From Candidatus Adlerbacteria bacterium (lineage in GTDB: Bacteria; Patescibacteriota; Minisyncoccia; Phycocordibacterales; SBAW01), in contig JBAXLB010000002.1 of NCBI GenBank assembly GCA_037135035.1, forward strand, positions 4,993 through 68,992: a stretch of 64,000 nt of DNA. Reading direction: 5' to 3'. A program made the position numbers and the translations under genes. The notes below the pieces were generated by a model. The model worked only from the letters and a program-made list of their open reading frames with translations. It was not told where the DNA came from and searched no databases. Position 1 is the first letter of the stretch; each line of letters opens with the position of its first letter. Positions 2,371 to 48,760 of the stretch are shown here, piece by piece.

Positions 2371-2395
2371 CGGCACCATGGATTGCATGGTGCCG
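2371..2395 (-). terminator. intrinsic terminator hairpin (CGGCACCATG-gattg-CATGGTGCCG) followed by a U-run on the minus strand
   Basis: Perfect 10-bp stem. On the minus strand it is followed by UUUUGCUAUU. It sits 30 nt after the stop of the 2425..2706 ORF. Confidence 0.6.
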
Positions 2396-2424
2396 TGCGA
2401 TGATGGTCGGCAGGGTTCGAGAAC

Positions 2425-2706
2425 CTACCTGGGGAAAGAGAACTGGAACTTGATGATCTCCTGGAGCCGCTCGAACGGCATCTCGGAGATCCACTCCCTG
2501 AAGGTCGCGTCGGACGCAGCATGTGCGCTGATCGCATCGAGGGTCTGGTCGACATTGAAGTCACTCCCCTTGAACTGGGAGATCACTTTCTTGCCGAAAA
2601 AAATGTCGGCTGAAGACTGTTGCCACCTTAAGCCGGTGGTCTGTTTCTCCCTGGTCCAGGAGCCCAGAAATGATCTGAGCTCCCTCATCCTTTCTTCGAA
2701 CAACAT
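2425..2706 (-). CDS. small hypothetical protein in a GC-rich islet (moron-like)
   Basis: 93 aa. GC is visibly higher than the flanks. Good SD (GGGAGG, 5 nt before the ATG), its own upstream TATACT-like box and a downstream terminator. Confidence 0.5.
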   Translation of the reverse strand: MLFEERMRELRSFLGSWTREKQTTGLRWQQSSADIFFGKKVISQFKGSDFNVDQTLDAISAHAASDATFREWISEMPFERLQEIIKFQFSFPR

Positions 2707-2817
2707 AATGACCTCCCTGCCTCTTACGAGGCGGATTAAGAACAGAATACTAGTATAATACTAATAGATAGCTTTGTCAAGCTCCAAAAAACCTTAAAAA
2801 TTGATACTATTTAACGT

Positions 2818-3450
2818 ATGCAACACAATAAATTCAATCCTGAGAGGGCAGAACTCGTGCCTATGGTTATCGAAAAAACGCCATTTGGCGAACGCGCGTT
2901 TGACATTTATTCGCGCTTGCTTAAAGACCGTATTATTTTTCTCGGTGGCCCAATCGAGGACTACACCGCAAACGTCGTTATCGCGCAGTTGCTCTTTTTG
3001 GCATCGGAAGACCCTAAAAAAGACATTCAGCTCTACATCAACTCCCCCGGCGGCTCGGTCACAGCCACACTCGCCATGCTCGACACGATGAACTACATCA
3101 AGCCAGACGTCGCGACTGTCTGCATTGGTATTGCAGCGTCCGGTGCTGCGATAATGCTCGCCGGCGGCACAAAGGGAAAGCGTTTTGCACTGCCCAACGC
3201 CGAAGTGATGATCCACCAGCCATGGGGCGGTGCACAGGGCCAAGCAACTGATATTGAAATTACCGCAAAGCACATTATTGCAACCCGCGACCGCTTGAAC
3301 AAAATCTTGGCAAAGGCCAGCGGCCAGCCGCTTTCAAAAATCGAAAAAGACGTCGAACGTGACTATTTCATGAGCGCAGAAGAAGCCAAAAAATACGGCG
3401 TCATTGACGACATCTTTGGCCACAAAGGTGCGCAAGTAGGCAAAAAATAG
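2818..3450 (+). CDS. clpP: ATP-dependent Clp protease proteolytic subunit
   Basis: 210 aa. ClpP catalytic-triad context is present (GIAASGAA with Ser, MIHQP with His, Asp near the C-terminus). Family-typical FLGGPIED... N-terminus. Confidence 0.93.
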
Positions 3451-5552: not shown

Positions 5553-5564
5553 TACACACATCTC

Positions 5565-5888: not shown

Positions 5889-6140
5889 TTAGTCGTTATA
5901 CCTCGGGAGCATTTCATTTAGTTCCTCAATGGAGATCACCTGATAGGTAGTTTCCTTCGTCGACGACCCCCCTTCCGACGACTTGTCTTCTTTTTTGGGA
6001 GATAGTGTCCCCAGCACCTTGTTCGCTTCCTCCTGGGAACCATGGAAGGAATGCACTTCCTTCCGGCTCCAGGCATGGAATTTGCCATACGACTTTGAAC
6101 AACCCTTGTTCTCAGTAATAATGATGTACTGAACCTGCAT
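5889..6140 (-). CDS. small hypothetical protein, GC-rich islet
   Basis: 83 aa. Strong SD (AGGAGGG). Own TTGACA-N16-TACTCT promoter-like boxes and two 5'-UTR hairpins. Confidence 0.5.
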   Translation of the reverse strand: MQVQYIIITENKGCSKSYGKFHAWSRKEVHSFHGSQEEANKVLGTLSPKKEDKSSEGGSSTKETTYQVISIEELNEMLPRYND

Positions 6141-6342: not shown

Positions 6343-7077
6343 ATGCAGTTAAAAGAAGCGTTGCAAACTATAGGGCTCTCCGAGAAGCAAACCGCTGTCT
6401 ATTTGGCACTGTTGCAGCTTGGCCGCGGCTCGGCATATTCTATTGCTCTCAAAAGCGGGCTCAAAAAACCCACCACCTACGTTATTTTGGACGAGCTGAT
6501 AGAGAAAGGCTTAGTCTCTCGTGTGCCGCGCGTCAAAAAACAGCTCTATGTCCCCCACTCGCCACAAGAGGTCTTTGCCACAGCTGAAGAAAAGTTTGCA
6601 CTAGCAAAAGCAACACTGCCCGAGCTGCTCGCGCTAACCAAAGGCACCGACACAAAAGTAAATACTCTTTACTTTGAAGGTGTCGAGGGTATCAAACAGC
6701 TGATGGAATATCGCGCTAAAGAAATGCACGGCAAAGAGATGGTCGGGTTCTATGCCACGGATGTTAACGCCGACCCAGAGCTAGTGCGATATTTTAAGGA
6801 CGAATGGGCAGACAAAATGTTGAAGTTACATATCCCTGTGCGTATGATAGCTCCCGAACATGCGTCCCTCAAAGACTATCGCGATGCAGACGCAAAATAT
6901 AACAGGCAGCTAAAAACCGTTCCGTATGCAGAGTATTCGTCCGAAGTTGCTATAGACGTGCTTGGCGACATTGTGCGCATACAAGATTATAAAAATTTGC
7001 AGGGAGTTGCGATAGAAAATGCCGACGTTGCAAAAACAGTGCGACAGATTTTTGAATTGGTGTGGAAAAAATTGTAA
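6343..7077 (+). CDS. TrmB-family HTH transcriptional regulator (paralog 2)
   Basis: 244 aa. wHTH LGLSEKQTAVYLALLQLGRGSAYSIALKSGLKKPTTYVILDELIEKGL. Close paralog of 41749..42483. Confidence 0.75.
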   Translation: MQLKEALQTIGLSEKQTAVYLALLQLGRGSAYSIALKSGLKKPTTYVILDELIEKGLVSRVPRVKKQLYVPHSPQEVFATAEEKFALAKATLPELLALTKGTDTKVNTLYFEGVEGIKQLMEYRAKEMHGKEMVGFYATDVNADPELVRYFKDEWADKMLKLHIPVRMIAPEHASLKDYRDADAKYNRQLKTVPYAEYSSEVAIDVLGDIVRIQDYKNLQGVAIENADVAKTVRQIFELVWKKL

Positions 7078-7214: not shown

Positions 7215-7736
7215 ATGGGCAATGAGACTATAAAAATTCATAACGTAGCTTTTATTGACGGACAAAACCTCCATTTAGGCACAAAAGAATGTGGCTGGGT
7301 GATAAATCATAAAAGATTTAGAGTATACCTTTCAGAAAAATATAATATTCAGGAAGCCTATTACTATTTAGGTTTCGTCTCAGACGGAGAGCAGGATCTA
7401 TACGACAAACTCCAAAAAGCCGGTTTTATCCTTTCGTTTAGAGACCATTCAGCTGCGCTTAAGGGAAATAAAAAAGGCAATGTTGACTGCGATATTGTAT
7501 TTGGTGCCATGAAAAAACTAGCAGAAAACGAGCCCTTCGATACAGTTTTTATAGTGTCTGGGGATGGCGATTATAAAAGAATGGTCGACTATTTAGTTAA
7601 AAAAGGAAAGTTCGGCAAAATGTTATTTCCAAACAGGAAGTTCGCCTCTTCTCTATATCACAGCTTAGGAGGAGAATACTTCGACTATCTCGAATCAGCT
7701 GATGTCAAAGCCAAGATAGCCCATACCCATAAATGA
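7215..7736 (+). CDS. NYN-domain (LabA-like, PIN-fold) protein, paralog 1
   Basis: 173 aa. FIDGQNL at the N-terminus and the SGDGDY acidic motif typical of NYN/LabA. Confidence 0.7.
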   Translation: MGNETIKIHNVAFIDGQNLHLGTKECGWVINHKRFRVYLSEKYNIQEAYYYLGFVSDGEQDLYDKLQKAGFILSFRDHSAALKGNKKGNVDCDIVFGAMKKLAENEPFDTVFIVSGDGDYKRMVDYLVKKGKFGKMLFPNRKFASSLYHSLGGEYFDYLESADVKAKIAHTHK

Positions 7737-8519: not shown

Positions 8520-9194
8520 GTGTATCCATACACGCCCCAGCTAGCCGCAAGGTCCGCTGGGGTTGTTCGTGCCCAAATCTGCTACAATAGCGGACACGTG
8601 GAGACAATTTTACTCATAGACGGAGAGAATTTTAAGGGCAAAATCCGCTCTGTGTTCAAAGACACAAAGAAGGACAAACCCGTGTGGCACGAATACGACT
8701 TTAAGGGTCTGCTTGATAAAGTGTTGAAAGATATTCCTCTCGATAGAAAGGTCTTTTACTTTGCTCGTATTAAAGAACACGATGATAGCAAAGAAAAATC
8801 AAAACAGTTAGTTGAGGAGCAACGCCAACTCAAAACCCATCTGGAGAAGCAGGGTTTTGAGGTTATTTTGAGCGGTCGAGTACGTGGGCAAATGGAAGAA
8901 GGTCAAAGCGGAAAAAAGGTACTTGTATTCAAAGAAAAAGGCGTTGATGTAAAAATCGCCGTCGACATGGTGAGCTTGGCGTGCGATAAGAAAGTTAAAG
9001 AAATAATACTTGGGAGCTCCGATTCAGACTTGCAACCCGCTATCAAAGAAGTTCGCGACAGAAAAATAAGCTGCGTATATCTCGGCTTCGAGGCACAGCC
9101 AAATAAAGGTCTTTCGTTTACCACCAGTAGAACCCTTTTAATACGCAACTCGGAGATTTTGGAATTTGAGAAAACACAGCAGACTCTCATTTAA
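8520..9194 (+). CDS. NYN-domain (LabA-like) protein, paralog 2
   Basis: 224-aa ORF. NYN motifs LLIDGENF and GSSDSD. The true start may be the GTG near 8598 (VETILLIDGENF). The stop codon abuts the hup 3'-end duplicate. Confidence 0.65.
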   Translation: MYPYTPQLAARSAGVVRAQICYNSGHVETILLIDGENFKGKIRSVFKDTKKDKPVWHEYDFKGLLDKVLKDIPLDRKVFYFARIKEHDDSKEKSKQLVEEQRQLKTHLEKQGFEVILSGRVRGQMEEGQSGKKVLVFKEKGVDVKIAVDMVSLACDKKVKEIILGSSDSDLQPAIKEVRDRKISCVYLGFEAQPNKGLSFTTSRTLLIRNSEILEFEKTQQTLI

Positions 9195-17818: not shown

Positions 17819-18924
17819 CGTTTTTTGATTGGAGCAGATGGCGTATCTAGTTCCAAAAGGAACGTTGTCAGTATGGTGTTAAATTTCTCTAAACTTGGGA
17901 TGTCTACCCATTCATTGTCGCTACCAATACCCTCTCCTATTGGACCAAATTCGATACCAGGACATTTGTATCGTGCAAAATGTCGTGCATCTGACGACCC
18001 AAACGCACCTCGCTTGATAATTTTTTTCTTAAGGATTTTTGAACTTACACTTTGAAGCATCTGTATGTATCTATTACTTGCGTCAGTATCAAGTGCCGGC
18101 TCGTCCGTAAGTACTTCCATAGAAAATCCTTTCGGTAAAAGCTTTTTTATTTTTTGTAGTACCTTTGTATCTTCCGGGATATATCGAATATCTAAAGAAA
18201 CGGTGCAGTCGTCAGGGATTTTATTAAGTGACTGGTTATTCGTTTCAATTTTTGCAACATTGACCGTCGTTACCCATTTTTCTTTAGCAGGAACCGGGTA
18301 CTGCTTTTTTAACGCAGTAAGAAATTCGTGCATCTTCCAAATAGCATTTTCTCCTCGCCATGGGTACGCGCCATGCGCTGTCTTACCGCGAGAGGAGATT
18401 TTTAACCATATAATTCCGCGTGCTTTGTAAACAATGTCGAAGTTAGTCGGCTCGCTGGTCAAAACAAAGTCTGCTCTCACACCTTGTTCGACTTGATATT
18501 TTGTTCCGTCAAAACCACCGAGTTCCTCGTCTGTAACAAGTTGCAAGCCTAGTGGGTACGAGACTTTATGTGCAATTTCCGCAAACGCATACAACATGCT
18601 GGTAAGGTTTGCCTTCATATCCATCACTCCAACGCCATACAACCGTTTACCTTTTACCACCGGGGTATACTGCTCCGGTTTGCCAGGAATAATATCTAAA
18701 TGCCCGTTGAGCAATACTTTAAACTTCTTTGGCCGTACAGGACCCACATATACCAACGCACTTTTGACACCGTTGCGCTCAAAGCGTTCAATGGTGAAAT
18801 TAGAAAGTTTGGAAAGAGCAAGATTTAAAATAGTGTCGAGTGCCTCTTTGTTGTCCGGATTAGATGGAATAGACACAAACGCTTGTGCCAAATCTAAAAT
18901 ATCTTCTTTCATGTCTCTATTCAT
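17815..18924 (-). CDS. M20-family metallopeptidase (ArgE/DapE-like)
   Basis: 369 aa. HLDIIP and GVGVMDMKANL metal-binding blocks typical of M20 peptidases/deacylases. Confidence 0.7.
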   Translation of the reverse strand: MNRDMKEDILDLAQAFVSIPSNPDNKEALDTILNLALSKLSNFTIERFERNGVKSALVYVGPVRPKKFKVLLNGHLDIIPGKPEQYTPVVKGKRLYGVGVMDMKANLTSMLYAFAEIAHKVSYPLGLQLVTDEELGGFDGTKYQVEQGVRADFVLTSEPTNFDIVYKARGIIWLKISSRGKTAHGAYPWRGENAIWKMHEFLTALKKQYPVPAKEKWVTTVNVAKIETNNQSLNKIPDDCTVSLDIRYIPEDTKVLQKIKKLLPKGFSMEVLTDEPALDTDASNRYIQMLQSVSSKILKKKIIKRGAFGSSDARHFARYKCPGIEFGPIGEGIGSDNEWVDIPSLEKFNTILTTFLLELDTPSAPIKKR

Positions 18925-20381: not shown

Positions 20382-20448
20382 TATCTTCTCTCCTGTTATG
20401 CGCCGTAGCGCGTTTGAACGAACTCTAAAATAGTCTCCCAAAAAGAAA

Positions 20449-31434: not shown

Positions 31435-34128
31435 GTGCGTGGTAGAATAGAAAATATGAAAGGTACTGAATTTTTAAAGAAAAAATATAACCTGCACAAT
31501 ACTCCAGAGGTCAAAGCCGCTGCCAGTCGAACAGACAAACGTACAGGCGAAAAAGTACCTCAAAAACCAGACGCGCAAATTCAAAACTATTTAGATCGGT
31601 TTACCGGCGTACTTGCACGCACAGATCCAAAAAAACGCGAACGCGGGCTCGAAGCCTTTAAAGATGTACTGCATAAAAAACTAGTTATACGAGGAGAGGA
31701 CGTCCCGGAAAACTATTTTGTACTCCAACAAAGAATTGCTCGCGAGAGGGGCCATGGAACCGTTGCAATTACACCCGCAGAACGGGCACACCATGTCGAA
31801 GTTATACGTAGAGATCAAATGCATTCTCTTGACCGATGGGTTACGTATTTGGCTTCAAATGATGCGCAGTACGAAGATTGGTTTAAATATTACATACTCC
31901 GCGGAGCTTCGGAGTTGAGCGAATATGATGCAGAAAAGAAAGATTTTGGAAAACGGTCAAAGGGAACCACAAAACCTTTTCCTGAGATTAACTCCGAGGC
32001 AGTAACATACATATACGACGCCGTGCTCGCAAACGGCGATAAAAACCCGGGCGAAGTGGTCGCCCCCGTCGACATACAACTTAAAGAAGCGGCTCGGAAT
32101 GGTGACTTTGCAAAAATATATGCTGCGGCAATTGAAAAAGCTGCGGCTAACTCGGCAGAATTATTTCCTGAAACAAAAGGGGAGTGGGTAAAATTTGATA
32201 AGGGTTCTGATCATACTCCACTTGTAAAGTCGCTTCAGAACCGCGGTACAGGGTGGTGCACTGCAGGGTTTGCAACGGCACAAACACAATTACAAGGAGG
32301 TGATTTTTATGTCTACTACTCACTCGATACAAAAGGAGAGCCAACTATTCCGCGAGTCGCAATTAGAATGGAGGGCACCCGTATTGCAGAAGTGCGTGGA
32401 GTAGCACCACAACAAAACTTGGACCAATACATTACCCCGGTCGTTAAACAGAAACTTCAAGGATTCCCCGATGGGCAGTTGTATGAGAAGAAGGTGGCAG
32501 ACATGGCAGAACTCACCACCATTGCGAAAAAAGAGCACTCAAAACAACCTCTTACAAAGGAAGAGCTTTCATTTCTCTATGAGAGAAATTCCAAGATAGA
32601 AGGGTTCGGACAGAACAGGGACCCTCGTATTGGAGAGATACGGAATAAACGTAATCGGGACACAGATTTAATGACAATATACGGTGTCGACGCTGCACAT
32701 ACCGCGGTGCATGCAGATGAAATACGTGAAGGCATAATACTTTTCACCGGAGATATGTATATCAATAAAGATACTCAATTCCCCGATTCTCTAAAATATG
32801 TTGCTGGAGACTTCCAAATAATTTTTGACGCTGCTGACATACCAGAGTCTCTGGCGCTCAAGCTTTTAAAGTTACAGCGCTCAGACATGGTAGTAGCACA
32901 ACTTGAAAAATTTGAACCGCTTTCTGCTGCGGCAGCTCGGGCACTATGCGAGGCTGGTCATACAAAACAGATAGCTGACAAAGCAGAGAGATTTATAGAA
33001 CTCGATACTGATACCGCTCTCGCGCTTATCGACAGTTCATTTCAAGGATTTCAAGTAAAAGAAATTATCTCAAAGGTGCCAGAAGCGGACCACGAAAAAA
33101 TTGCAACACACATGTTGGAGAAAAAATGGTATCAAAGTGTTGTTGGGAATTTAGAAAAATTCTCAAACACGGACAACCAAAAAGTTGCCGACGCGCTCAT
33201 TGCAGCGGGAGAGGAATGGACTCTCGCAAACTTCCTAAATAAATTTACCAACTTAAACGCAGCTACCGCGAAGAAACTTATCGAGGGCAGCACGGCGCAA
33301 CAAGCAGAATTTGTAGCAGAAAATCTTGCACATTTTGGCCAACTCGACAAAGAAACGGCCTTCGCGCTTGTAACACACACAGTAGGGGATAGACGTTCTT
33401 GGTTTTGTGGAAATGTTCTTGAACATTTAAATAAATTCGAACCACTTGACCACATGGAACTTGCGCGAACAATAACAAAAATCGGCCAAGGTCATTATTT
33501 GATCCCATACTTGTTCAAATTAAAAAATGTTGATCACCAAGAAGTTGCAAAGTTGCTTATCGAAGGCGGGGACGCACGCAGCGTTGCCCGCGACTTACAT
33601 GAATTTGGGGCGGTCAACCAGAAAGAAGTTGCTCGTGAAATTTTAAAAAGCAAAGAGCCGGGCGAACTCGCATATCACTTGGAGAATTTCACCGGCCTCG
33701 ATGCCCACATAGCTGAAGAACTTCATGACCTTAATGCCGACAGCTACATTCTAAACAATATGAAGAGTTTCGAACCAAAAGAACATGCAAAAATAGCACT
33801 CATGCTTATGCGTGATGAGAAAAAAATACGGGACGTCGCATGGCAAATAGACCAATTTGACTCATTAAATACTGAAGCAGCCGAAAAAATTATAGGCGCC
33901 GGCTATTCTAGCATCGTGGCAGATAATCTGGGGAAGTTTGGCAACCTTTCCCGTACGGTAGACAGAGAACTTGTGCGGATGGAGGACATGACGCGCGGTA
34001 TGTATTTCTCTCGCATAGGCAAACGAGTACTAAGAACACTAGGTGCGGAAGTGTCTTTGGGCCTACCCTCTAAACCAAAACAGCCGAGAGAAAGACGTTC
34101 TCCGCCAAGAAATAACACCCATATATAG
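31435..34128 (+). CDS. large repeat protein (about ten ~33-36-aa alpha-helical repeats, HEAT/ARM-like) of unknown function
   Basis: 897 aa. Recurring units of the form [LN]..L.KF..L....A..LI..G (for example NLEKFSNTDNQKVADALIAAGEE, HLENFTGLDAHIAEELHDLNADS). The N-terminal ~380 aa is non-repetitive. Confidence 0.6.
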   Translation: MRGRIENMKGTEFLKKKYNLHNTPEVKAAASRTDKRTGEKVPQKPDAQIQNYLDRFTGVLARTDPKKRERGLEAFKDVLHKKLVIRGEDVPENYFVLQQRIARERGHGTVAITPAERAHHVEVIRRDQMHSLDRWVTYLASNDAQYEDWFKYYILRGASELSEYDAEKKDFGKRSKGTTKPFPEINSEAVTYIYDAVLANGDKNPGEVVAPVDIQLKEAARNGDFAKIYAAAIEKAAANSAELFPETKGEWVKFDKGSDHTPLVKSLQNRGTGWCTAGFATAQTQLQGGDFYVYYSLDTKGEPTIPRVAIRMEGTRIAEVRGVAPQQNLDQYITPVVKQKLQGFPDGQLYEKKVADMAELTTIAKKEHSKQPLTKEELSFLYERNSKIEGFGQNRDPRIGEIRNKRNRDTDLMTIYGVDAAHTAVHADEIREGIILFTGDMYINKDTQFPDSLKYVAGDFQIIFDAADIPESLALKLLKLQRSDMVVAQLEKFEPLSAAAARALCEAGHTKQIADKAERFIELDTDTALALIDSSFQGFQVKEIISKVPEADHEKIATHMLEKKWYQSVVGNLEKFSNTDNQKVADALIAAGEEWTLANFLNKFTNLNAATAKKLIEGSTAQQAEFVAENLAHFGQLDKETAFALVTHTVGDRRSWFCGNVLEHLNKFEPLDHMELARTITKIGQGHYLIPYLFKLKNVDHQEVAKLLIEGGDARSVARDLHEFGAVNQKEVAREILKSKEPGELAYHLENFTGLDAHIAEELHDLNADSYILNNMKSFEPKEHAKIALMLMRDEKKIRDVAWQIDQFDSLNTEAAEKIIGAGYSSIVADNLGKFGNLSRTVDRELVRMEDMTRGMYFSRIGKRVLRTLGAEVSLGLPSKPKQPRERRSPPRNNTHI

Positions 34129-34249
34129 ACTTCTCTTGAGAGAGCTTGACAAAAATACAAAACATGTATAAATTTACATCGGCTTGATCTAACACAAAAG
34201 ACCCTCTACAGAGGTCTTAAACCCCTCCAAGCCAGTTAAGGAGCGTTTC

Positions 34250-34537
34250 ATGAAGAAGCTCTGGAATTGGACGGCCCTCTGGGTCGTCGCCACGCTACTA
34301 GCGTACGCGTACGTCGCAATGCTGGTGAGTATCCCGCTGTGGCTGGGTACCAACGACGAAGGAGCTGCAGCCGTTTTGCTGAGTTTCCTTGTCGTAGGCC
34401 TGCTCTTTGTGGCCTACCAAGCAATCCTCTGGATTGTCGACAGACGGTCCAAGAAGAACGACCTCGTTTCGCACGGGCCTCTACGGCTTCGAGCGCGTCG
34501 GCGGGGAGTTCTTCTCCTCAGAAATCATCGCCACTAG
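34250..34537 (+). CDS. small two-TM membrane protein in a GC-rich islet
   Basis: 95 aa. Perfect SD AAGGAG 6 nt before the ATG. Followed by a strong hairpin. Confidence 0.5.
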   Translation: MKKLWNWTALWVVATLLAYAYVAMLVSIPLWLGTNDEGAAAVLLSFLVVGLLFVAYQAILWIVDRRSKKNDLVSHGPLRLRARRRGVLLLRNHRH

Positions 34538-34566
34538 CAGCCCTGTCGTTGTGGTCGACAGGCAAC

Positions 34567-34609
34567 CCCGGCAGTCTTTCTTCCTCACAAGGGAAGCGAG
34601 ACTGCCGGG
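34567..34609 (+). terminator. long compound hairpin (CCCGGCAGTCT ... AGACTGCCGGG with inner CTTCC/GGAAG stem)
   Basis: Perfect 11-bp outer stem 30 nt after the stop of 34250..34537. Moderately T-rich tail. Upstream of rpsO. Confidence 0.55.
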
Positions 34610-34675
34610 TTCGTCATTTCTGGCCTTCTCTGCAGCCTCTTGCAAAAAACACGAGCCTGTGCTACCATATGGGCC

Positions 34676-34942
34676 ATGCTGACTACGAAGAAAAAGGCCA
34701 AAATAATCAAAGAAACAGGCATTCATGCAACTGACACCGGCTCTGCCGAGGTGCAAATTGCTGTGTTGAGCGAACGCATTGAAGAACTCGCCAACCATTT
34801 GAAAAAACACTTGAAAGACAAGCACTCACGCCGTGGCCTGTTGCAGATGGTTGCAGACCGTCGCACACATTTGAAGTATTTGGAAAACAGCGACAAAAAG
34901 CGCCACACCGCTATTGTCAAAAAGTTGGGTTTGAAGAAATAA
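34676..34942 (+). CDS. rpsO: 30S ribosomal protein S15
   Basis: 88 aa from the internal ATG. S15 signature ([35 protein letters not shown]...). Confidence 0.9.
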   Translation: [88 protein letters not shown]

Positions 34943-35057: not shown

Positions 35058-35705
35058 ATGGCAATCATTAAACACAAAAGCCAGCGCGTCGGCATTTTTA
35101 TAGACACGCAAAACCTCTACCACAGCGCAAAAAACCTTTACAAAGCTAAAGTTAACTTCGGCAACGTCGTTAAGGAAGCCTTGGCCGGCCGCGTACTTGT
35201 ACGCGCAGTAGCGTATGTTATCCGCACCGAAAGCGAAGAAGAAAAAAGTTTTTTTGATGCGTTAAACAAACTCGGAATAGAGACAAAAGTAAAAGATATC
35301 AAGATATTTGCCGGCGGTGCTAAAAAGGCCGACTGGGACATGGGCATGGCTATCGACGCTATTGCGATGGCCGAAAAGCTCGACACTATTGTCCTGGGTA
35401 CCGGCGACGGCGACTTTGTCCCGCTGGTGGAATATCTACGTTACGCCCGCGGCTGCCAGGTGGAAGTTATTTCCTTCGGCAAGTCGTCTTCGGGCCAGTT
35501 GCGCGAGGTAACCGACGACTTTATCGACATGTGCGACAACCCACGCAATTATCTTATTAACTACAAGGGAGGTGGGGGAGGTCGCGGATTTTCAATCCCT
35601 GGCTTTGGCGGAGGAGCCAAACATGCACCTACACCTGTCGAAGACGAAGGAGTCGATGTCGGCCAAGAGGTCTACGACGACAGCGACATAGACGAAGATA
35701 AATAA
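35058..35705 (+). CDS. NYN-domain (LabA-like) protein, paralog 3, with C-terminal Gly-rich/acidic tail
   Basis: 215 aa. IFIDTQNLYHS and GTGDGDF motifs. Tail NYKGGGGGRGFSIPGFGGG...DDSDIDEDK. Confidence 0.7.
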   Translation: MAIIKHKSQRVGIFIDTQNLYHSAKNLYKAKVNFGNVVKEALAGRVLVRAVAYVIRTESEEEKSFFDALNKLGIETKVKDIKIFAGGAKKADWDMGMAIDAIAMAEKLDTIVLGTGDGDFVPLVEYLRYARGCQVEVISFGKSSSGQLREVTDDFIDMCDNPRNYLINYKGGGGGRGFSIPGFGGGAKHAPTPVEDEGVDVGQEVYDDSDIDEDK

Positions 35706-35720: not shown

Positions 35721-35760
35721 AAAACGCCGTGGCTCGGGAACCCGAACTGCGGCGTTTTGT
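35721..35760 (+). terminator. intrinsic terminator after the NYN paralog 3
   Basis: AACGCCG...CGGCGTT stem followed by TTTGTTGTT. Confidence 0.65.
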
Positions 35761-36063
35761 TGTTGGCGATCAGAATCAGGCTTCGGCCCAAGGCGGCTCG
35801 CCGCCCAGACATTCAGTCCATTGCTCACCACGTCCCGTGTTGACGTAGCATGGGACGTATCGGTCGAAAAGATCGACGAGGAAAAAGAAGCCCCGCACCG
35901 GCAACCACAATATCTTGACCATGACGCCTCCGCCTGTAAACGCCGGGGAAATCCCTTCGGCTGACAATCTCACCATAACCATATCTTTGAAGAGGGTAGA
36001 CGTCAATATAAATAGAAACGCCGTCCCCTTGGTAGAGGACGGCGGTAACGATGTTGATGCAGC

Positions 36064-36552
36064 TCAGCGTTTCTTCTGTGCTGCCCGGAATTCTTCTTCC
36101 GTGGCGTTGGCGAGGATGTCCCGCACCAACCTGCTGTAGACCCACGGCATTACCGCCAAGCGCAGCAGCCTCGGGAGCAGCGATATCAAGATGAACCCAC
36201 CGAACGCAAGGCTTAGAGCAGCCTTCGCTCGGTCATCCATCACCTCGGCCACCTTCTGGGTCCCCCAGGCAATGCTTTTGGCAAGTGGCTTGGCAAGTGG
36301 AGCCAAGAACCCACCCAACTGGCTCACCTGCTGGCGGACGGGCTCGGGAACGGTTAGGTTCCAAAGCAAGTCCAAGAAATAGTGGGTCAGCCAGGCCGAG
36401 ACCGGCTTGACGACACTCACTACTGCCAGAATGACTTTCGGGCAGTACTGCACCATCATGCCGAATGCCAAGAAGGCAATTGGCAGGAGGGCCCAGTAAA
36501 GCACGAGCTTGGTCAGCTCATACTTATAGAGCGGTAGGCGCTTAATTTTCAT
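36064..36552 (-). CDS. multi-TM membrane protein in a GC-rich island
   Basis: 162 aa. SD AAGGGGA. Several hydrophobic helices. Higher GC than the flanks. Ambiguous overlapping frames downstream (35776..36145) were not called. Confidence 0.5.
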   Translation of the reverse strand: MKIKRLPLYKYELTKLVLYWALLPIAFLAFGMMVQYCPKVILAVVSVVKPVSAWLTHYFLDLLWNLTVPEPVRQQVSQLGGFLAPLAKPLAKSIAWGTQKVAEVMDDRAKAALSLAFGGFILISLLPRLLRLAVMPWVYSRLVRDILANATEEEFRAAQKKR

Positions 36553-36655
36553 CTTTTCCCCTTTTTCAAAGGCTTTTGGGGCTAATTCCCCTAGGCTGAC
36601 TCCTACCTTCTATTATACCGCATATCAACATATTTGTCAAGTAATAGGCGGGAGG

Positions 36656-40439: not shown

Positions 40440-40471
40440 AATCTGCTTGGTAAATTAAATATAAAAAATTT

Positions 40472-40504
40472 AAGCGCCCAGTATTTCTACTGAGCGCTTT
40501 TTCG
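40472..40504 (+). terminator. intrinsic terminator after the dksA-like gene
   Basis: AGCGCCCAGTA-tttc-TACTGAGCGCT followed by TTTTT. Confidence 0.75.
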
Positions 40505-40659
40505 TTCTCCTCCTCTAAGTTTTGATTTTGCGGAGTTTGTACACGGGCACAATTTCGTACCCGAGCTCCTTCAGGGACCGCTCGATCTGGGACTTGGCGC
40601 GATGCCACGATCTCCAGTAAATGAGCGCCTCGGAATAACCGGGGCGGTTTTTGGATTTT

Positions 40660-40902
40660 TCAGTCGAGCAACAAATCCCGCATCTTGCGAACAGGTTTGT
40701 TCCTCTCGAGGATGTGCGTGCCCGGATTCTTTTTCATCCTGTCGAAGATCCGCCGACACGCGGAGATGACGCTTTTGCCCCCGCGAGGCACGTTCTTCTT
40801 CAATTCTTCGAGAAGCCTTTCGGCTTTCTCTGGATCCTCCCAGCTCCACGCTGCTGCGAGGAAATCAACCGCAATCGCGTACATCTTATCGTCAAGCTTC
40901 AT
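40660..40902 (-). CDS. small hypothetical protein in a GC-rich island
   Basis: 80 aa from the ATG at 40902 (SD GGGAGA). Element E3 lies ~45 nt upstream. A second open frame continues downstream without a start, which may be a frameshifted remnant. Confidence 0.45.
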   Translation of the reverse strand: MKLDDKMYAIAVDFLAAAWSWEDPEKAERLLEELKKNVPRGGKSVISACRRIFDRMKKNPGTHILERNKPVRKMRDLLLD

Positions 40903-40936
40903 GACTTTCTCCCGTGCCTTGTGAGGCGTCTGTTTT

Positions 40937-41010
40937 AAAAGATCTCTTCTCGATGAACCTTCGAATTTCTTCAAAGACTCAATAGAGAGGGTGAATGTGT
41001 AGATTCACCC
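40937..41010. repeat. conserved leader element E3 (copy of E1) plus GGGTGAAT-gtgtag-ATTCACCC hairpin. Two further hairpins follow at 41026..41049 and 41053..41068
   Basis: About 90% identity to 5482..5533 over 52 bp. The hairpin sequence is different but structurally equivalent. Confidence 0.7.
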
Positions 41011-41167
41011 CAATGCCTTAAGTTCGATAGAGAAGGGCTTTTCTCTATCTATCGAGACGCCACTCTCGAGGTTGTAGCGTTAGATAGTTGTTGGACTTAT
41101 AACCCCTAATTTAAAAGGATACGCCTTCTGTTGCCAAGCGGGAATCACCCCGCTCCGATCTATGCGA

Positions 41168-41521
41168 CTATGCGGGCAGGCCCGTCACTTCAACCAATCG
41201 GCGGTGGAAGGGGAAGAGCTTGCTTTCGCACCTCGGACAGCTAACCAAGCCGGGGAACTCCTTTTTGAAGTTCTCACCGTCAGGGAGACTAACCGAGCCC
41301 AGGAACGAGCCGCGGGCATTTTTGATGAACTTCACGTACATCAAGTTGCCATCGTACTCGCTGCTGACGCAACGCAACCAGGTGGTTTCCCTGTTTTCGC
41401 ACGCATCGTTCATGCATGCAAACAGATACCTAGTTTCCCAGAGACGGCCTTCGCCGCCCGGGATGCGCACGTCATACTGGTAGTCGTAAGACTCGGTAGC
41501 GTAGTTGTAACAGTCGCGCAT
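41168..41521 (-). CDS. hypothetical Cys-rich (zinc-ribbon-like) protein in a GC-rich island
   Basis: 117 aa from the ATG at 41521 (SD CAGGAGAG). CxxC (CPRC) plus scattered Cys/His. High GC. Confidence 0.45.
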   Translation of the reverse strand: MRDCYNYATESYDYQYDVRIPGGEGRLWETRYLFACMNDACENRETTWLRCVSSEYDGNLMYVKFIKNARGSFLGSVSLPDGENFKKEFPGLVSCPRCESKLFPFHRRLVEVTGLPA

Positions 41522-41748
41522 GATGCTCTCCTGTGCCCCTCGGGGCTGATGGTTTGGCAATATTGCCCTTGTTGTGATGATCGTCTACCCAACAGTATAG
41601 GTCATTTTGGGCAGATTGTCAATCTTTATGATTTAATTTATAGTTCGTGTGTATATAAAAAGCTTTATTTATCAACATATTTTGGAGATTTAGCTTCGTT
41701 TATCAAAATTGTTGACTAAATATGTGTTTTGCCCTATACTAGCTAGGT

Positions 41749-42483
41749 ATGAATTACACCGAAGCACTTGGAACTTTGGGGCTGAGCGAAAAGCAGGCGA
41801 GCGTATATTTAGCCTTGGTTGGGCTAGGGGAGTCGTCTGCCTACGCTATTGCCCACAAAGCAGGCCTAAAAACTCCTACTACCTACGTTATTTTGAAGGA
41901 GTTAATCGAGTTAAACATCGTCTACACTATCCCTCGGGCCAAAAAGCAGCTGTTTGTTTCCATGGACCCCAAGCAACTCTTTGCTAAAGCACAGACACGC
42001 TTTGAAGACGCAAAAAGTTTACTGCCGTCTATACTCGCACTTGTTGCTGTGCCTGGAGTGGCACCAGTAACACGCTCGTTCTCGGGGAAGGCTCAACTGT
42101 TGAGTGCATACTTTGAAACACTCGCCGTACCGGACACCACGCTGCGCGGCTGGCTTTCGGAAGGTGCGTGGTCGGAACACGGGCTCGATTTCTTTTTAAA
42201 CACCTACCGGCCGCAGCGCATCAAACAAAACATCTCCAACCAGTTTATTGTCGGCGACACTGCTGTGATGCGCGACTATGCCCAACACGATGCAGGGGTG
42301 CTTAAAGAAACTCGCGTGGACAAAAACTTCGGGCCACAGACCGACCTCCTTATATATGGTGGCAATAAAATAATCATCGCTTCGTTTTATGAAGAAATGG
42401 GAGTTATTGTCGAAAGCCAAAAAGTGCACGACTTACTCGCAGGGATATTCGAGGCGCATTGGGCCGCACTCGAGGGCAAATAA
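41749..42483 (+). CDS. TrmB-family HTH transcriptional regulator (paralog 5)
   Basis: 244 aa. wHTH LGLSEKQASVYLALVGLGESSAYAIAHKAGLKTPTTYVILKELIELNI. Closest paralog is 6343..7077. Confidence 0.75.
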   Translation: MNYTEALGTLGLSEKQASVYLALVGLGESSAYAIAHKAGLKTPTTYVILKELIELNIVYTIPRAKKQLFVSMDPKQLFAKAQTRFEDAKSLLPSILALVAVPGVAPVTRSFSGKAQLLSAYFETLAVPDTTLRGWLSEGAWSEHGLDFFLNTYRPQRIKQNISNQFIVGDTAVMRDYAQHDAGVLKETRVDKNFGPQTDLLIYGGNKIIIASFYEEMGVIVESQKVHDLLAGIFEAHWAALEGK

Positions 42484-45554: not shown

Positions 45555-47504
45555 ATGAATGGGGAAAGCGGTTTGAACGATGCCCAAAAAGAGGCAGTGG
45601 AGACTACAGAGGGTCCGCTACTTGTCATCGCAGGTGCCGGAGCAGGCAAAACACGAGTTATCGCCCACCGGATTTTAGAAATTGTACAAAAAGGTGTGGC
45701 CCCAGAGCAGATTTTGGCTATCACGTTTACCAACAAGGCGGCAACGGAGATGCGCGAGCGGGTGGTTGGCCTTTTGAGGAAGTTTGAGGGGCCTACGCAA
45801 AACCCTCTGCGTCGATCTTCGGCTCCGCAGCCGGGTTTTGCTTCGGCCAGCGCACCGTTTGTTTCTACCTTCCATTCGCTTGGTCTGCAGATAATTAAAG
45901 AAAATCATGTCTTGCTGGGGTACAAACGCACTCCAACCATATACGACCGCGCAGACTCTATGCGCGAAGTAAAAGCAGCGCTGAAGACACTCGGCAACGA
46001 AGAAATTGAACCACGTACAGCACTTGGCATTATTTCCAAACAAAAAGGGCAGGGACGCGAGGCAGCCAGTTTTGCAGAAAAGGCCGAGATGCCCGTCGAC
46101 CGGGTTGTGGGGCAGGTGTGGCTTGCGTACGACGCAGCACTTAAAAAAGACGGCGCTGTAGACTTTGACGACCTGCTTGTAAAAGCGATGCGCCTGCTGC
46201 AAAACAACGAAGAAGTACGCCTTTCCTACCAAAAGCGCTGGCGCTATGTACATATAGACGAATACCAAGACACTAACTCGGTGCAGGCAAAAATGGCCGA
46301 GATGCTTGTGGGCCCCGAGAAAAACATTTGTGCCGTGGGCGATATCGACCAAACTATCTACGGCTGGCGCGGTGCAGAAATTGCCAACATACTTTCGTTC
46401 GAAAAAAAATATCCCGGGGCAAAAATTATTCTGTTGGAAGAAAACTACCGCTCGACCAAAAATATTTTGGCCGCTGCAAACGAGATAATTGCAAAAAACA
46501 CCAACCGCCGCGAAAAAAACTTGTACACGAAAAATACTGATGGCGAGCAACTTGGCCTATACCAAGCGTTTGACGAAACTGACGAGGCAGGCTTTATCGT
46601 ACGAAAAATAAAAGAGCATATACGCGATGGCAGGCAGCCAAGAGACTTTTGTGTGCTGTACCGGGCAAACTTTCAGTCGCGCGCTATTGAAGAACAGCTC
46701 TTAAACTCTGGGCTCGAATACCAACTGCTTGGAACAAAATTTTATGAACGCAAAGAAATAAAAGACGTACTTTCGTTTATCAAAGCGGCGATACACGGAA
46801 CACCGGGGGACTTGGCGCGCATTGCAAACGTGCCACCGCGCGGTATTGGCAAAGTGACGCTGCTTAAAATCTTAAGCGGGCAAGAAGATGCGCTCGGCGG
46901 CGCAGTTGGAGACAAAGTAAAAAACTTGCGCTTCCTACTTTCAAAAATACATATAAAAGCAACAGAGATGATACCGTCTGAATTTTTGAAATTTGTCATT
47001 GTCGAGTCGGGGTTAGAGCGTATGTTCCGCGAAGATAAAATAGAAGGGCCAGAGCGCCTAGAAAACTTGCGCGAACTTGTGTCGCTCGCGGTACGTTACG
47101 ACGCGTTTGGCCCGGGAGAGGGGTTGGACCAACTACTTGAAAACGCAGCGTTGCAGAGCGACCAAGACGAGCTGAAAGAAAACGCAAACGCCGTGCGACT
47201 TATGACCGTGCATGCATCAAAAGGTCTTGAATTCCCGTTTGTGTTTATCACCGGACTTGAAGAAGGGCTCTTTCCATACGAGCGTATGGGCGAAGAAAAC
47301 TCCGACAAAGAAGAAGAGCGCCGTTTGATGTACGTGGCCATTACGCGTGCCGAGAAAAAATTATTTCTCACCTTTGCGTCGTACCGAACAGTCTTTGGTT
47401 CTAAAAACGCAACCATCCCGTCGCAATTTCTCTCTGACATATCAAACCACCTGGTCAGTTGGGAAACCCCCGAGCGTATTGGAAGAACAATATATTTGGA
47501 TTAG
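45555..47504 (+). CDS. pcrA: UvrD/PcrA-family ATP-dependent DNA helicase
   Basis: 649 aa. LNDAQKEAVE, Walker A AGAGAGKT, DEYQDTN, and helicase motifs through VHASKGLEF. Confidence 0.9.
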   Translation: MNGESGLNDAQKEAVETTEGPLLVIAGAGAGKTRVIAHRILEIVQKGVAPEQILAITFTNKAATEMRERVVGLLRKFEGPTQNPLRRSSAPQPGFASASAPFVSTFHSLGLQIIKENHVLLGYKRTPTIYDRADSMREVKAALKTLGNEEIEPRTALGIISKQKGQGREAASFAEKAEMPVDRVVGQVWLAYDAALKKDGAVDFDDLLVKAMRLLQNNEEVRLSYQKRWRYVHIDEYQDTNSVQAKMAEMLVGPEKNICAVGDIDQTIYGWRGAEIANILSFEKKYPGAKIILLEENYRSTKNILAAANEIIAKNTNRREKNLYTKNTDGEQLGLYQAFDETDEAGFIVRKIKEHIRDGRQPRDFCVLYRANFQSRAIEEQLLNSGLEYQLLGTKFYERKEIKDVLSFIKAAIHGTPGDLARIANVPPRGIGKVTLLKILSGQEDALGGAVGDKVKNLRFLLSKIHIKATEMIPSEFLKFVIVESGLERMFREDKIEGPERLENLRELVSLAVRYDAFGPGEGLDQLLENAALQSDQDELKENANAVRLMTVHASKGLEFPFVFITGLEEGLFPYERMGEENSDKEEERRLMYVAITRAEKKLFLTFASYRTVFGSKNATIPSQFLSDISNHLVSWETPERIGRTIYLD

Positions 47505-47508
47505 CGGT

Positions 47509-48294
47509 ATGCAAAAAATAGTAAAGAAAAAATCCCTCGGGCAACATTTTTTAAATGCACCAACATACTTGCGTGCCATGGCCGATGCGGCGGACATACA
47601 AAAAGGGGAGTGTGTGCTAGAAATTGGACCCGGGGAAGGAGCCCTTACAAGAGAGCTGCTTGCGCGCGGAGCAAAAGTAGTTGCTGTTGAAAAAGACCAT
47701 CGCTTAATTTCAGTACTAGAAGAAACATTTGCAGATGAAATACAAAATAAAAAACTTTTTGTGCACGAAGGCGATGCACTCGAGGTTGATGTAGAAAAAA
47801 TAATAGGGAAGAAAAATTTTAAACTTGTCGCCAATATCCCGTACTACATAACAGGTGCACTGCTGAGAAAATTTTTGTCTGAAGAAAAAACACAGCCAAG
47901 CACTCTTGTATTTTTAGTACAAAAAGAAGTCGCAGAGCGCGTCGCAAAAAGCGCAAAAGAAAGTATTCTCTCACTTTCAGTCAAAATATACGGCAATGTG
48001 AAGTATATAAAGACTGTGCCGCGCGGCGCATTTTCTCCACCACCCGACGTAGACTCTGCAATTTTGGCAGTAACAAACATCTCGCGGAGTAATTTTAGGG
48101 ACGCAGCACATGAGAAAAAGTTTTTTACTATATTAAAGAGTGGCTTTGCACAAAAACGTAAAATGTTGAAGAAAAATATTACAGGAATTTTTGGAAACGG
48201 AACTGAAGCTGCTATGCAGAATGCAGGCATCGCAGAAAACGCTCGTGCAGAAGATGTACCACTAGAGAAGTGGTTGGCACTCTCGGGGCACTAA
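47509..48294 (+). CDS. rsmA: 16S rRNA (adenine1518/1519-N6)-dimethyltransferase
   Basis: 261 aa from the ATG at 47509. LGQHFL opening and LEIGPGEGALT SAM motif. Confidence 0.88.
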   Translation: MQKIVKKKSLGQHFLNAPTYLRAMADAADIQKGECVLEIGPGEGALTRELLARGAKVVAVEKDHRLISVLEETFADEIQNKKLFVHEGDALEVDVEKIIGKKNFKLVANIPYYITGALLRKFLSEEKTQPSTLVFLVQKEVAERVAKSAKESILSLSVKIYGNVKYIKTVPRGAFSPPPDVDSAILAVTNISRSNFRDAAHEKKFFTILKSGFAQKRKMLKKNITGIFGNGTEAAMQNAGIAENARAEDVPLEKWLALSGH

Positions 48295-48301
48295 ACGTAT
48301 A

Positions 48302-48760
48302 TCAAAGTACTAGCGGTGGGCTGGGTAGCCAACTCTGGTTTGCCCATTGCATACGCTGGCCGGGGAGAGGAGGCCACACAAAAGGAGGAATGGGCGAAAC
48401 ACAACTAAAAGGAACGGGCGTTGGAACTGACCCTGGAATACAACACCAGAAGGGGATGTCCGCGATACCCGCAATTTCTTGCAGTGGAGCGTACGGAGGA
48501 GGAATGTCGAGCGAGGGGGGAAGAGGAGGGGGACCTCCGCGTAGTGTTGCTATCGTCCAAACATACACAGGTATTTTGGTAAATGGGGCCGGAACTATAA
48601 CAACCCACATAGACGGACCTAAGAGGCTAAGACAGGGAAAGACAAATTCAATTCTGCCGCCGAATGAAAGCCCAGCTTGAGCCTGCGCAGAAGCAGAAAA
48701 AGGCGCGAGCAATGTTGCGGCGAGGACAATACCGACTGTAAAGCGTGCCATACCTGTCAT
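48302..48760 (-). CDS. secreted Pro-rich hypothetical protein, raised GC
   Basis: 152 aa. Signal peptide MTGMARFTVGIVLAATLLAPFSASAQA. Mature part is Pro/Cys-rich. Confidence 0.45.
   Translation of the reverse strand: MTGMARFTVGIVLAATLLAPFSASAQAQAGLSFGGRIEFVFPCLSLLGPSMWVVIVPAPFTKIPVYVWTIATLRGGPPPLPPSLDIPPPYAPLQEIAGIADIPFWCCIPGSVPTPVPFSCVSPIPPFVWPPLPGQRMQWANQSWLPSPPLVL

Follow-up and report, generated by a model that had tools for sequence, protein, structure and literature searches.

Genes and base composition of the window

The stretch analysed here (64,000 nucleotides of contig JBAXLB010000002.1, referred to throughout as the window) is a chromosomal stretch of Candidatus Adlerbacteria, placed by NCBI taxonomy in the Patescibacteria / Parcubacteria group, with a GC content of 47.7%. 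Its housekeeping backbone, annotated with Pfam, comprises ClpP, RNase Y, HU, the CCA enzyme, XerC/D, S15, NYN, PNPase, DksA, a ComM-like protein, M23/LysM, UvrD, KsgA, and YidC, and the same annotation places beside it a YcaO/nitroreductase cluster, a cluster resembling a type IV secretion system (T4SS), five TrmB-family regulators, and many orphan open reading frames (ORFans; ORF, open reading frame). An initial annotation had singled out nine GC-rich segments, here termed islets ISL1 to ISL9, as a mosaic acquired from a high-GC donor. These islets are not one thing: the trait common to islets 1 and 3 to 8 is a gene-specific, heritable excess of GC at third codon positions (GC3). The genome data consist of the 64-kb window and, for relatives, stretches of up to 10 kb on each side of matched genes.

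Segment GC was ranked as a percentile among same-size windows of the 64-kb stretch. The described level of about 60% GC stands in direction for seven of the nine segments, which are truly elevated, but only 14383-14925 (ISL3; GC 0.599, 99.8th percentile) reaches it. The other elevated segments are 19020-20441 (ISL4; 0.561, 99.9th percentile), 27462-28932 (ISL5; 0.543, 98.8th), 34231-34609 (ISL6; 0.583, 98.5th), 35760-36552 (ISL7; 0.559, 98th), 40520-41600 (ISL8; 0.520, 89th), and 2371-2760 (ISL1; 0.531, 85th). Segment 5560-6140 (ISL2; 0.487, 59th) is unelevated and does not count as an islet, and 48302-48760 (ISL9; 0.536, 89th) owes its GC to Pro and Ala. Equally GC-rich 400-bp windows that had not been listed lie inside housekeeping genes, namely the ComM-like gene at 43328 (0.603), a trypsin-like gene at 17314 (0.595), and RNase Y at 4442 (0.593).

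When the 59 genes are ranked by GC3, the first seven places are all occupied by islet ORFs, at 0.648-0.787 against a pooled non-islet value of 0.466, and the binomial z for GC3 runs from +3.7 to +7.9 in six of these seven. Heterogeneity across genes is pronounced (chi2 695, 59 degrees of freedom), and over-dispersion persists when the islets are removed (chi2 388, 48 degrees of freedom); it is two-sided, with the T4SS pilin (0.27) and the hypothetical gene hyp431 (0.33) in the low tail. The T4SS-like cluster at 48808-61631, which includes PrgI, a VirB4/TraG-like ATPase, the T4SS pilin, and large ORFans, has the lowest GC3 of the window, several of its genes lying at 0.27-0.37. The deviation in composition and codon usage that the initial annotation expected is therefore present (GC3 0.65-0.79 against 0.47; dinucleotide delta* 91, taken up below), except in ISL2, and in ISL9 it arises from amino acids only.

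In the ORFan islets, GC at first and second codon positions (GC1/GC2) is 0.544/0.418 against 0.558/0.398 in the backbone, while GC3 is 0.731 against 0.466. The share of C in pyrimidine-ending (NNY) codons is 0.72 in these islets against 0.53 in the backbone, that of G in purine-ending (NNR) codons 0.61 against 0.33, and that of A at fourfold-degenerate sites 0.11 against 0.26, so that the shift touches all codon classes. The bias of a foreign donor would be expected at GC1, GC2, and in amino acids too, all of which are backbone-like instead; with 8.6% Ala and 5.5% Lys, islet proteins are unlike a high-GC proteome. Relative synonymous codon usage (RSCU) of the ORFans correlates with that of the native gene ISL4 at r=0.69 and with the backbone at r=0.01, a likeness that is weak evidence because any two GC3-rich sets correlate somewhat. 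The bias is real, confined to third positions, inherited gene by gene, and unconnected with an actinobacterial donor.

Promoters are described here as matches to the sigma-70-type consensus scored out of 12, and are predictions from sequence. The five best matches in front of genes (11-12/12) belong to ISL7, ISL1, ISL3, the ISL8 ORF at 41560-41168 (ISL8_130), and a methyltransferase gene at 25308, and the four genes of highest GC3 are all among these five. The five genes with a match of at least 11/12 average a GC3 of 0.730 and all others 0.487 (Mann-Whitney p=7e-6; Spearman 0.49). Strong terminator hairpins stand 3' of ISL1, ISL3, ISL7, and the two ISL5 genes (an SDR oxidoreductase gene and the ORFan ISL5_194), an 18-bp hairpin stands 3' of ISL6, and over the 130 bp upstream of the cassettes GC is abruptly lower, at 0.31-0.43. 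The picture of self-contained units is borne out by the promoters of ISL1, ISL3, ISL7, and ISL8_130 and by the five terminators, but not by ISL4, which lies upstream of an M20 peptidase partner. Minus-strand placement between conserved housekeeping genes was described correctly, 9/11 islet ORFs lying on the minus strand against 12/49 other genes. A further promoter-like site at 420-393 (minus strand, 11/12) precedes no complete gene; it points into a GC-rich stretch, at 0.515 over 1-400, which continues beyond the window edge, and 1-420 may be another cassette cut by that edge.

A search with Rfam, at the gathering threshold and at E <= 0.1, placed no RNA family in any islet and returned only four tRNAs and two sub-threshold leader matches outside the islets. 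A structured-RNA reading was rejected on this result, on the coding periodicity of the ORFs, and on ratios of nonsynonymous to synonymous divergence (dN/dS) below 1 where orthologues were measurable. None of the four tRNA genes lies within or borders an islet, the nearest being 1.1 kb from ISL4; three form a cluster (Pro-TGG, Gly-GCC, and Arg-TCG, the last at 22415-22487), and a tRNA-Gly-TCC gene stands separately at 16532. The sole integrase-family gene of the window is the conserved XerC/D.

An independent ENA assembly agrees at 100% identity with the region 9020-29829, which carries islets 3 to 5, and a Logan contig again shows the 453-aa gene of ISL4 among the same neighbours; a chimeric assembly was accordingly rejected for these islets, and the mosaic at 9020-29829 is no assembly chimera. 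All 10 looked-up islet ORFs (from every islet except 4) are present in the protein collection: eight correspond exactly to the NCBI annotation of the metagenome-assembled genome, ISL3 to a shorter 165-aa call, and ISL6 is known only from a Logan assembly. The 453-aa ISL4 protein matches 'hypothetical protein WCK46_01170 [Candidatus Adlerbacteria bacterium]' at 100% identity.

Cassettes and their slots in related genomes

The closest genome is a Lac Pavin Adlerbacteria (JAPLUW010000001), of which three stretches were recovered. Further relatives were found by a metagenome scan with PNPase and by look-ups around the SDR and ISL3 orthologues, which located the backbone in about 80 contigs; it is compact in relatives, lying within 22 kb in contig L072. 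Of the eight islets that could be tested, six find a syntenic counterpart in Lac Pavin, and per-gene GC3 of the two genomes correlates at r=0.91-0.92, though fourfold sites differ by 10-65%. The expectation that foreign islets would be missing from related genomes fails for most of them: ISL3, ISL4, SDR, ISL5_194, ISL6, and ISL7 are syntenic in Lac Pavin and ISL9 in L054 and L055, and only ISL1 and ISL8 are absent. Best matches likewise fall in the lineage of the backbone, with the exception of ISL3, whose relatives are Reyranella-like or unassigned; this is the outcome that the initial annotation had itself named as refuting its reading. An exhaustive search of 1.84 billion cluster representatives with the islet ORFans, the collection meant wherever representatives are mentioned below, gave 16 matches in all, and no useful match was obtained from Pfam (nine ORFans), PHROGs (nine), or NCBIfam (eight; ISL2 omitted). 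Divergence at synonymous (dS) and nonsynonymous (dN) sites between the window and Lac Pavin was calculated by the Nei-Gojobori method, in which dS above 1 is saturated; backbone dS is 0.18-0.65 around 30-44 kb.

The ISL7 unit (36019-36640, minus strand) consists of a perfect predicted promoter at 36640-36612 (TTGACA-17-TATAAT), a 162-aa membrane protein at 36552-36064, and a terminator at 36044-36019. Its Lac Pavin counterpart is syntenic and 83% identical, has the same 12/12 promoter, and has a GC3 of 0.78 against 0.742-0.75 in the window. Since its dS of 0.60 (dN 0.10) equals that of its flanks, ISL7 was inherited vertically with them; it is under purifying selection and has lost no GC3. Outside Lac Pavin it has one relative, 43% identical, in the same slot next to NYN and with a GC3 of 0.74. 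Among the 20 other relatives in which the NYN-PNPase gap measures at least 450 bp, 14 have in it a minus-strand ORF that is unrelated and at least 90 aa long, in some cases with a 12/12 promoter, and the 12/12 promoter at this slot is retained in Lac Pavin, L068, L079, and L082. The window contains three genes for NYN-domain proteins, putative RNases (7215-7736, 8520-9194, and 35058-35705), and the one conserved in relatives is the PNPase-adjacent copy.

Directly upstream of rpsO (34673-34942), the ISL6 unit (34146-34609, plus strand) joins a promoter-like site at 34146-34174 (10/12), a 95-aa ORF with two transmembrane segments at 34250-34537, and the 18-bp hairpin at 34567-34609. It has no non-self match among the representatives. 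The corresponding slot in Lac Pavin is syntenic and holds a 35% identical protein (GC3 0.677-0.72 in the window, 0.69 in Lac Pavin), and the dS of 1.84, far above the 0.18-0.65 of the flanking XerCD, rpsO, and NYN genes, indicates that the allele was replaced. In L054 and L055, an 11-12/12 promoter followed by a short GC3-rich ORF (about 0.71) stands between XerCD and NYN. An AT-rich indel also accompanies the GC-rich ones here: the 897-aa ORFan at 31435-34128, of low GC3 (0.385), is missing in the Lac Pavin genome, where XerC/D adjoins the ISL6 slot. Comparison of the same-slot ORFs of relatives with ISL6, ISL7, and ISL8 by phmmer and blastp detected no homology, so 'same slot' does not mean 'same gene' beyond the Lac Pavin/L145 clade.

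The ISL1 unit (2370-2780, minus strand) has a promoter-like site at 2780-2752 (TTGACA-17-TATACT), a 93-aa ORFan at 2706-2425 annotated as hypothetical WCK46_01075 (GC3 0.787, GC1/GC2 0.43/0.40), and a terminator hairpin at 2396-2370, and its single non-self relative among the representatives is 31% identical. It is absent from Lac Pavin, where homology ends at window position 2762 and an unrelated 195-aa membrane ORF of GC3 0.765 occupies the slot upstream of ClpP. The ISL8 insertion (40447-42478) contains minus-strand ORFans at 40974-40660 (GC3 0.65) and 41560-41168 (GC3 0.74), the latter being ISL8_130 with its promoter-like site at 41622-41594 (11/12), and a TrmB-family gene on the plus strand at 41749-42483. 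This block is absent from Lac Pavin, where DksA adjoins ComM, as it does in most other relatives, L054, L055, L058, and L072 among them. Both ISL8 ORFans (searched as ISL8_104 and ISL8_117) match only themselves among the representatives. At the borders of the insertion, the only boundary pair searched, no meaningful direct or inverted repeats, integrase, or tRNA were found.

Five genes for TrmB-family helix-turn-helix proteins lie in the 64 kb, at 851-1606, 6343-7077, 24397-25161, 28996-29754, and 41749-42483; most adjoin variable cassettes, and one lies within the ISL8 insertion. Recent TrmB duplication as a source of cassettes was rejected, the paralogues being just 21-35% identical to one another. 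The 83-aa ORFan of ISL2 (5889-6140, minus strand; ORF GC 0.476, GC3 0.62) matches only itself among the representatives, and its region, together with the TrmB gene at 6343 and the NYN gene at 7215, is without counterpart in the Lac Pavin genome. A PemK toxin gene (L141, 7992-8378) and a PhdYeFM antitoxin gene (L135, 14415-14666) are present in Lac Pavin at slots that in the window are filled by different genes or by no gene.

ISL5 contains two genes. The SDR oxidoreductase unit (27431-28202, minus strand; gene at 28202-27462, terminator at 27453-27431, GC3 about 0.60) gives full-length adh_short_C2 (E=1.3e-51) and adh_short (2.7e-44) matches above the gathering scores of Pfam, and nothing about it is unusual for its family. 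It is syntenic in two other Adlerbacteria-like lineages at 54-55% identity, one of them Lac Pavin (54% identical; GC3 0.59 in the window, 0.53 in Lac Pavin), and its nearest named relatives outside the candidate phyla radiation (CPR) belong to Pseudomonadota, at 44-50% identity; it is an old resident of the lineage, possibly with an ancient proteobacterial origin. ISL5_194 (28348-28963, plus strand; GC3 0.60) encodes a 194-aa membrane-anchored ORFan followed by a terminator at 28938-28963, and its single relative among the representatives is the syntenic Lac Pavin orthologue, 65-66% identical (65% in the pairwise comparison, GC3 0.60 and 0.59). ISL9 (48302-48760, minus strand) encodes a secreted Pro-rich protein of 152 aa (19% Pro; GC1/GC2/GC3 0.61/0.57/0.43) and in L054, L055, L063, L092, L083, and others the interval from KsgA to the next gene holds a syntenic homologue. 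It is a native gene, GC-rich only via its Pro and Ala codons.

Divergence between the window and Lac Pavin is blocky along the sequence: dS is 0.18-0.73 in 16.6-24 and 30-44 kb and above 1 in ClpP, 10.3-15 kb, and 24-29 kb, with hyp409 (15.3-16.5 kb) at 0.85. This pattern suggests recombination among diverged lineages that would include housekeeping genes.

The ATP-grasp-like gene and the ISL3 family

ISL4 (19020-20381, minus strand; GC3 0.672-0.68) encodes a 453-aa ATP-grasp-like enzyme and is the first gene of a conserved pair, followed after 95 bp by the M20 peptidase gene (17815-18924, minus strand; GC3 0.38). Its homologues number more than 250 at 42-63% identity, and the three with informative names belong to Adlerbacteria, Jorgensenbacteria, and the Patescibacteria group; of 51 GTDB-representative loci of the gene, many are labelled Patescibacteria, and about 18 carry other, probably automatic, labels. 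The gene adjoins M20 (less than 300 bp away, same strand) in 38/41 patescibacterial loci, and its GC3 exceeds that of M20 in 33/41 (means 0.505 and 0.371; Wilcoxon p=1e-7), with a gap of up to 0.45 in mid-GC genomes. Pairwise identity matrices of the two genes correlate at r=0.65 and their closest pairs coincide, from which it follows that they have been inherited together. In Lac Pavin, ISL4 is syntenic and 96% identical, with a GC3 of 0.66 against 0.68 in the window, and its dS is 0.20 against 0.59 for M20 (neighbours 0.59-0.73). Taken together, these comparisons identify ISL4 as a native, phylum-wide core enzyme gene, vertically inherited with its neighbour.

The AlphaFold2 (AF2) model of the ISL4 protein (pLDDT 92) is matched by Foldseek to the PDB folds 3n6x, glutathione synthetase, DcsG, and Ddl, the entries hit including 8fbz and 6jil, with probabilities of 0.96-1.0 for the first three ranks and 0.38-0.85 for Ddl and a TM-score of about 0.4, and the modelled structure accordingly has an ATP-grasp-like fold. 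Like the ATP-grasp amidoligases of the glutathione/glutathionylspermidine synthetase kind that are paired with peptidases, it has a fold match of the 3n6x/glutathione synthetase type and a fixed place beside an M20 amidohydrolase; unlike them, it reaches a TM-score of only about 0.4 and matches no Pfam or NCBIfam family at E <= 0.01. In other Patescibacteria (L011, 8078-15241; L047, 5099-12534; L037, 5807-15931), the ATP-grasp-like gene lies in larger clusters with tandem paralogues, M20-like genes, and others, and within these clusters GC3 is bimodal gene by gene on one strand, 0.6-0.9 against 0.26-0.46. Avoidance of toxin-endoribonuclease motifs, ACA for example, was considered as a cause of A-poor third positions and dropped, the trinucleotide observed/expected ratios of 23 ATP-grasp/M20 pairs showing depletion of TAA, TTA, and TAG only.

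The ISL3 unit (14325-15010, minus strand) comprises a promoter-like site at 15010-14983 (11/12), a secreted 180-aa protein at 14925-14383, and a terminator with a 14-bp stem at 14356-14325. The AF2 model of the protein (pLDDT 78) is a beta-barrel with weak lipocalin/avidin-like (calycin-like) matches, and phage and plasmid collections returned no match to it. The Lac Pavin counterpart is syntenic and 43% identical, with a GC3 of 0.74 against 0.762-0.77 in the window; dS is 1.31 and dN 0.52, and the neighbours hyp431 and hyp409 (dS 0.85-1.07) have a GC3 of 0.33-0.39. Six other members of the family were found among the representatives, and its settings are the two Adlerbacteria genomes, the CPR contig L139, two Reyranella-like contigs, one contig of 62% GC, and a short, unassigned ENA contig of 1.1 kb (P0259). 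The Reyranella assignment is based on 90% clusters of neighbouring genes: on these two contigs, of 60-64% GC, the neighbours cluster at 90% or more with Reyranella/Alphaproteobacteria proteins. On the 62% GC contig, the ISL3-family gene directly follows a Mu-like transposase and an IstB-like ATPase. In every host examined (all members but one), the GC of the gene is 0.55-0.62, which is low for Reyranella and high for Adlerbacteria. By these comparisons, the ISL3 family is the one clear cross-phylum case among the islets.

On L139, the ISL3-family gene ends a cluster of YcaO, nitroreductase, and precursor genes and is locally the most GC3-rich (0.68 in a locus of 0.50). The window itself carries, at 10320-13013, genes for a nitroreductase-like protein and for YcaO together with an ORF of 120 aa (12651-13013) whose C-terminus is rich in Gly, Ser, and Cys; the three look like a thiazole/oxazole-type cluster for a ribosomally synthesized and post-translationally modified peptide (RiPP) with its precursor. 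The same RiPP-like trio and the ISL3-family gene occupy 10615-14461 on the distant L139, where YcaO is labelled a SagD-family maturase. At 156-1656, L139 also carries a CD-NTase and Cap15 pair (CBASS-type defence).

Seen across all units, the histories differ: ISL7 and ISL5_194 are inherited, ISL6, ISL1, and ISL8 are replaced or private, and ISL3 is shared with alphaproteobacterial mobile DNA. The mosaic acquisition proposed in the initial annotation thus survives in part, for the ISL8 indel, the replaced ISL1, the replaced allele of ISL6, and ISL3 with its Reyranella-like relatives, but not for the majority of islets, which are resident in the lineage.

Origin and proposed maintenance of the third-position bias

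The explanation favoured here, to which we give about an even chance, is that the islets are lineage-resident and partly exchangeable cassettes whose synonymous GC bias is kept by selection in strongly transcribed genes. In this view, small accessory genes break up a conserved housekeeping backbone at fixed intergenic slots; most are monocistronic cassettes in which a sigma-70-type promoter close to consensus, a small ORFan (secreted or in the membrane), and an intrinsic terminator are combined. Such cassettes would belong to the flexible gene pool of the lineage and diverge or be replaced much faster than their flanks, a few of them being private. Where transcription is strong, GC at silent sites would be maintained by selection acting through the choice of codons or the stability of mRNA, and swapped cassettes would be drawn from GC3-rich genes of this class, be it in related genomes or on mobile elements. 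Of the possible specific causes of the bias, silent-site selection in strongly transcribed genes is most likely, and is proposed with moderate confidence.

Flexible genomic islets, or integration hot spots between conserved core genes, are familiar from bacterial pangenomes. The slots of the window resemble them in holding variable accessory genes in the same intergenic positions, in presence and absence, in allele replacement, and in their surface or secreted ORFans; they differ in that each unit is one small gene equipped with a promoter and a terminator of its own, in being GC-richer rather than AT-richer than the backbone, at third positions only, and in lacking an integrase, tRNA, or att repeats at ISL8, the sole boundary pair searched. 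The amelioration model of horizontally acquired DNA, in which atypical composition or codon usage marks foreign genes, is said to go back to Lawrence and Ochman in 1997, and the islets depart from it: GC3 is undecayed at dS 0.6-1.3 beside AT-rich neighbours, and a native gene shares the bias. Decaying foreign relics are not what is seen, as the GC3 of orthologues stays high at dS above 0.6-1.3. With GC3 of about 0.75 beside genes of about 0.35 at such dS, simple amelioration fails, and either something keeps the bias up or separate, recent imports brought the alleles in. Classes of codon usage that go with expression level are known in bacterial genomes, and the islets resemble these in their distinct shared RSCU class, in having the strongest promoter matches, and in the low dS of ISL4. 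In ISL7 (0.60) and ISL3 (1.31) dS is not reduced, and the usual highly expressed genes (S15, HU, and PNPase) stand outside the class.

Several observations weigh against maintenance by selection. The GC3 of those usual highly expressed genes lies below the islets (HU 0.45, S15 0.57, PNPase 0.47), so that the link to expression rests mainly on the promoter matches, and ISL4 itself has a best promoter match of just 7/12. The comparison with ribosomal-protein genes and their like covers S15 and HU, those present in the window. A general patescibacterial rule in which a strong promoter precedes GC-rich DNA was dropped, the association being weak over all loci (p=0.04) and mainly found in Adlerbacteria-like ones. 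CPR bacteria are, moreover, expected to have weak translational selection. The dinucleotide signature of the pooled islets is deviant (delta* 91 against 45 +/- 14). Many related genomes have 52-59% GC and a GC3 of 0.6-0.78, and in the window a cassette of such descent would stand out as GC-rich even if nothing selected for it. For some islets recent import is real, ISL1 and ISL8 being absent from the closest genome and ISL6 replaced, and the window copy of ISL3 scores 138 bits against a Reyranella-like copy and 106 bits against its own syntenic counterpart, so that independent imports could mimic maintenance.

These points lead to the main rival, which is possible though on the unlikely side: repeated import by recombination at conserved flanks from a GC-richer pool, made up of Adlerbacteria of 52-59% GC and of mobile elements shared with high-GC Alphaproteobacteria, with no maintaining force; the cassettes would stand out only because the backbone of this lineage is poorer in GC. 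Import would account for the ISL8 indel, for the replacement of ISL1 by an unrelated GC3-rich ORF, for the dS of 1.84 in ISL6 against 0.18-0.65 in its flanks, and for the deviant dinucleotide signature; the GC3 of the cassettes (0.7-0.78) is that of the high-GC relatives genome-wide, whose slot ORFs match PNPase in GC3, members of the ISL3 family, found on Reyranella-like contigs and next to a Mu-like transposase, have a GC of 0.55-0.62 throughout, and the blocky dS between the two Adlerbacteria genomes implies recombination. It explains the indels and ISL3, but not ISL7, which is vertical, with no GC3 loss in either lineage or in the 43% identical relative, so that amelioration would need a starting GC3 near 1.0, nor ISL4, which shares the codon usage yet is native and co-inherited with an AT-rich partner. 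GC1 and GC2 are unshifted, and among 15 billion proteins no donor sequence was found for ISL1, ISL2, ISL6, or ISL8. A different force, GC-biased gene conversion, would make the islets recombination hot spots whose silent sites are driven towards G or C; reportedly known in bacteria from work of Lassalle et al. in 2015, it fits the allele replacement and indels at the slots, the rise of both G- and C-ending codons in all codon families, and the low dS of ISL4, which is compatible with recent conversion between lineages. We consider it improbable, given the sharp fall of GC to 0.31-0.43 in the 130 bp upstream of cassettes, the unaffected GC1 and GC2, and an M20 gene that stands 95 bp away untouched in dozens of genomes. 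The reported effects of such conversion in bacteria amount to a few GC3 points, not +25.

Recent acquisition by a Saccharibacteria-like epibiont from a high-GC actinobacterial host, the origin first suggested, is hardly credible. The atypical composition, the self-contained units, and the two islets missing in the closest genome would be in keeping with it. The organism, however, is a Candidatus Adlerbacteria and not one of the Saccharibacteria, synteny with relatives holds for six of the eight testable islets, and the Ala (8.6%) and Lys (5.5%) contents do not fit such a donor. No actinobacterial protein stands among the named matches in the best 120 listed for ISL4 or SDR or among the named ORFan matches; named matches are instead to Adlerbacteria/Patescibacteria, followed for SDR by Pseudomonadota, and for ISL3 to Reyranella-like bacteria. 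ISL8, the only boundary pair searched, has no integrase, tRNA, or repeat boundary.

A bolder extension of the favoured explanation is quite doubtful: that fixed slots combine a conserved, near-perfect promoter with an exchangeable, fast-evolving small surface protein of permanently GC-rich silent sites, that the ISL3 family points to a Reyranella-type partner or host, and that silent sites of the ATP-grasp-like gene are under strong gene-specific selection. If true, the sharing of the ISL3 beta-barrel solely with Reyranella-type Alphaproteobacteria and their Mu-like elements would hint at a physical partner or host for this Parcubacteria lineage, and a GC3 of the ATP-grasp-like gene up to 0.45 above that of its partner would imply strong silent-site selection where it was thought to be lacking.

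Because the native, co-inherited ISL4 deviates as strongly as the ORFans, deviation in GC or codon usage is an unsafe sign of horizontal transfer in the mid-GC genomes of candidate phyla. Should the bias be maintained, one would have to ask which selective force acts on silent sites in symbionts that are tiny and grow slowly. A literature search on Patescibacteria codon bias and on Adlerbacteria hosts found nothing. The cassette slots, which combine strong, conserved predicted promoters with small surface proteins that vary, are plausible sites of host interaction, and the ISL3 family, shared with Reyranella-like bacteria, offers a lead towards a partner organism.

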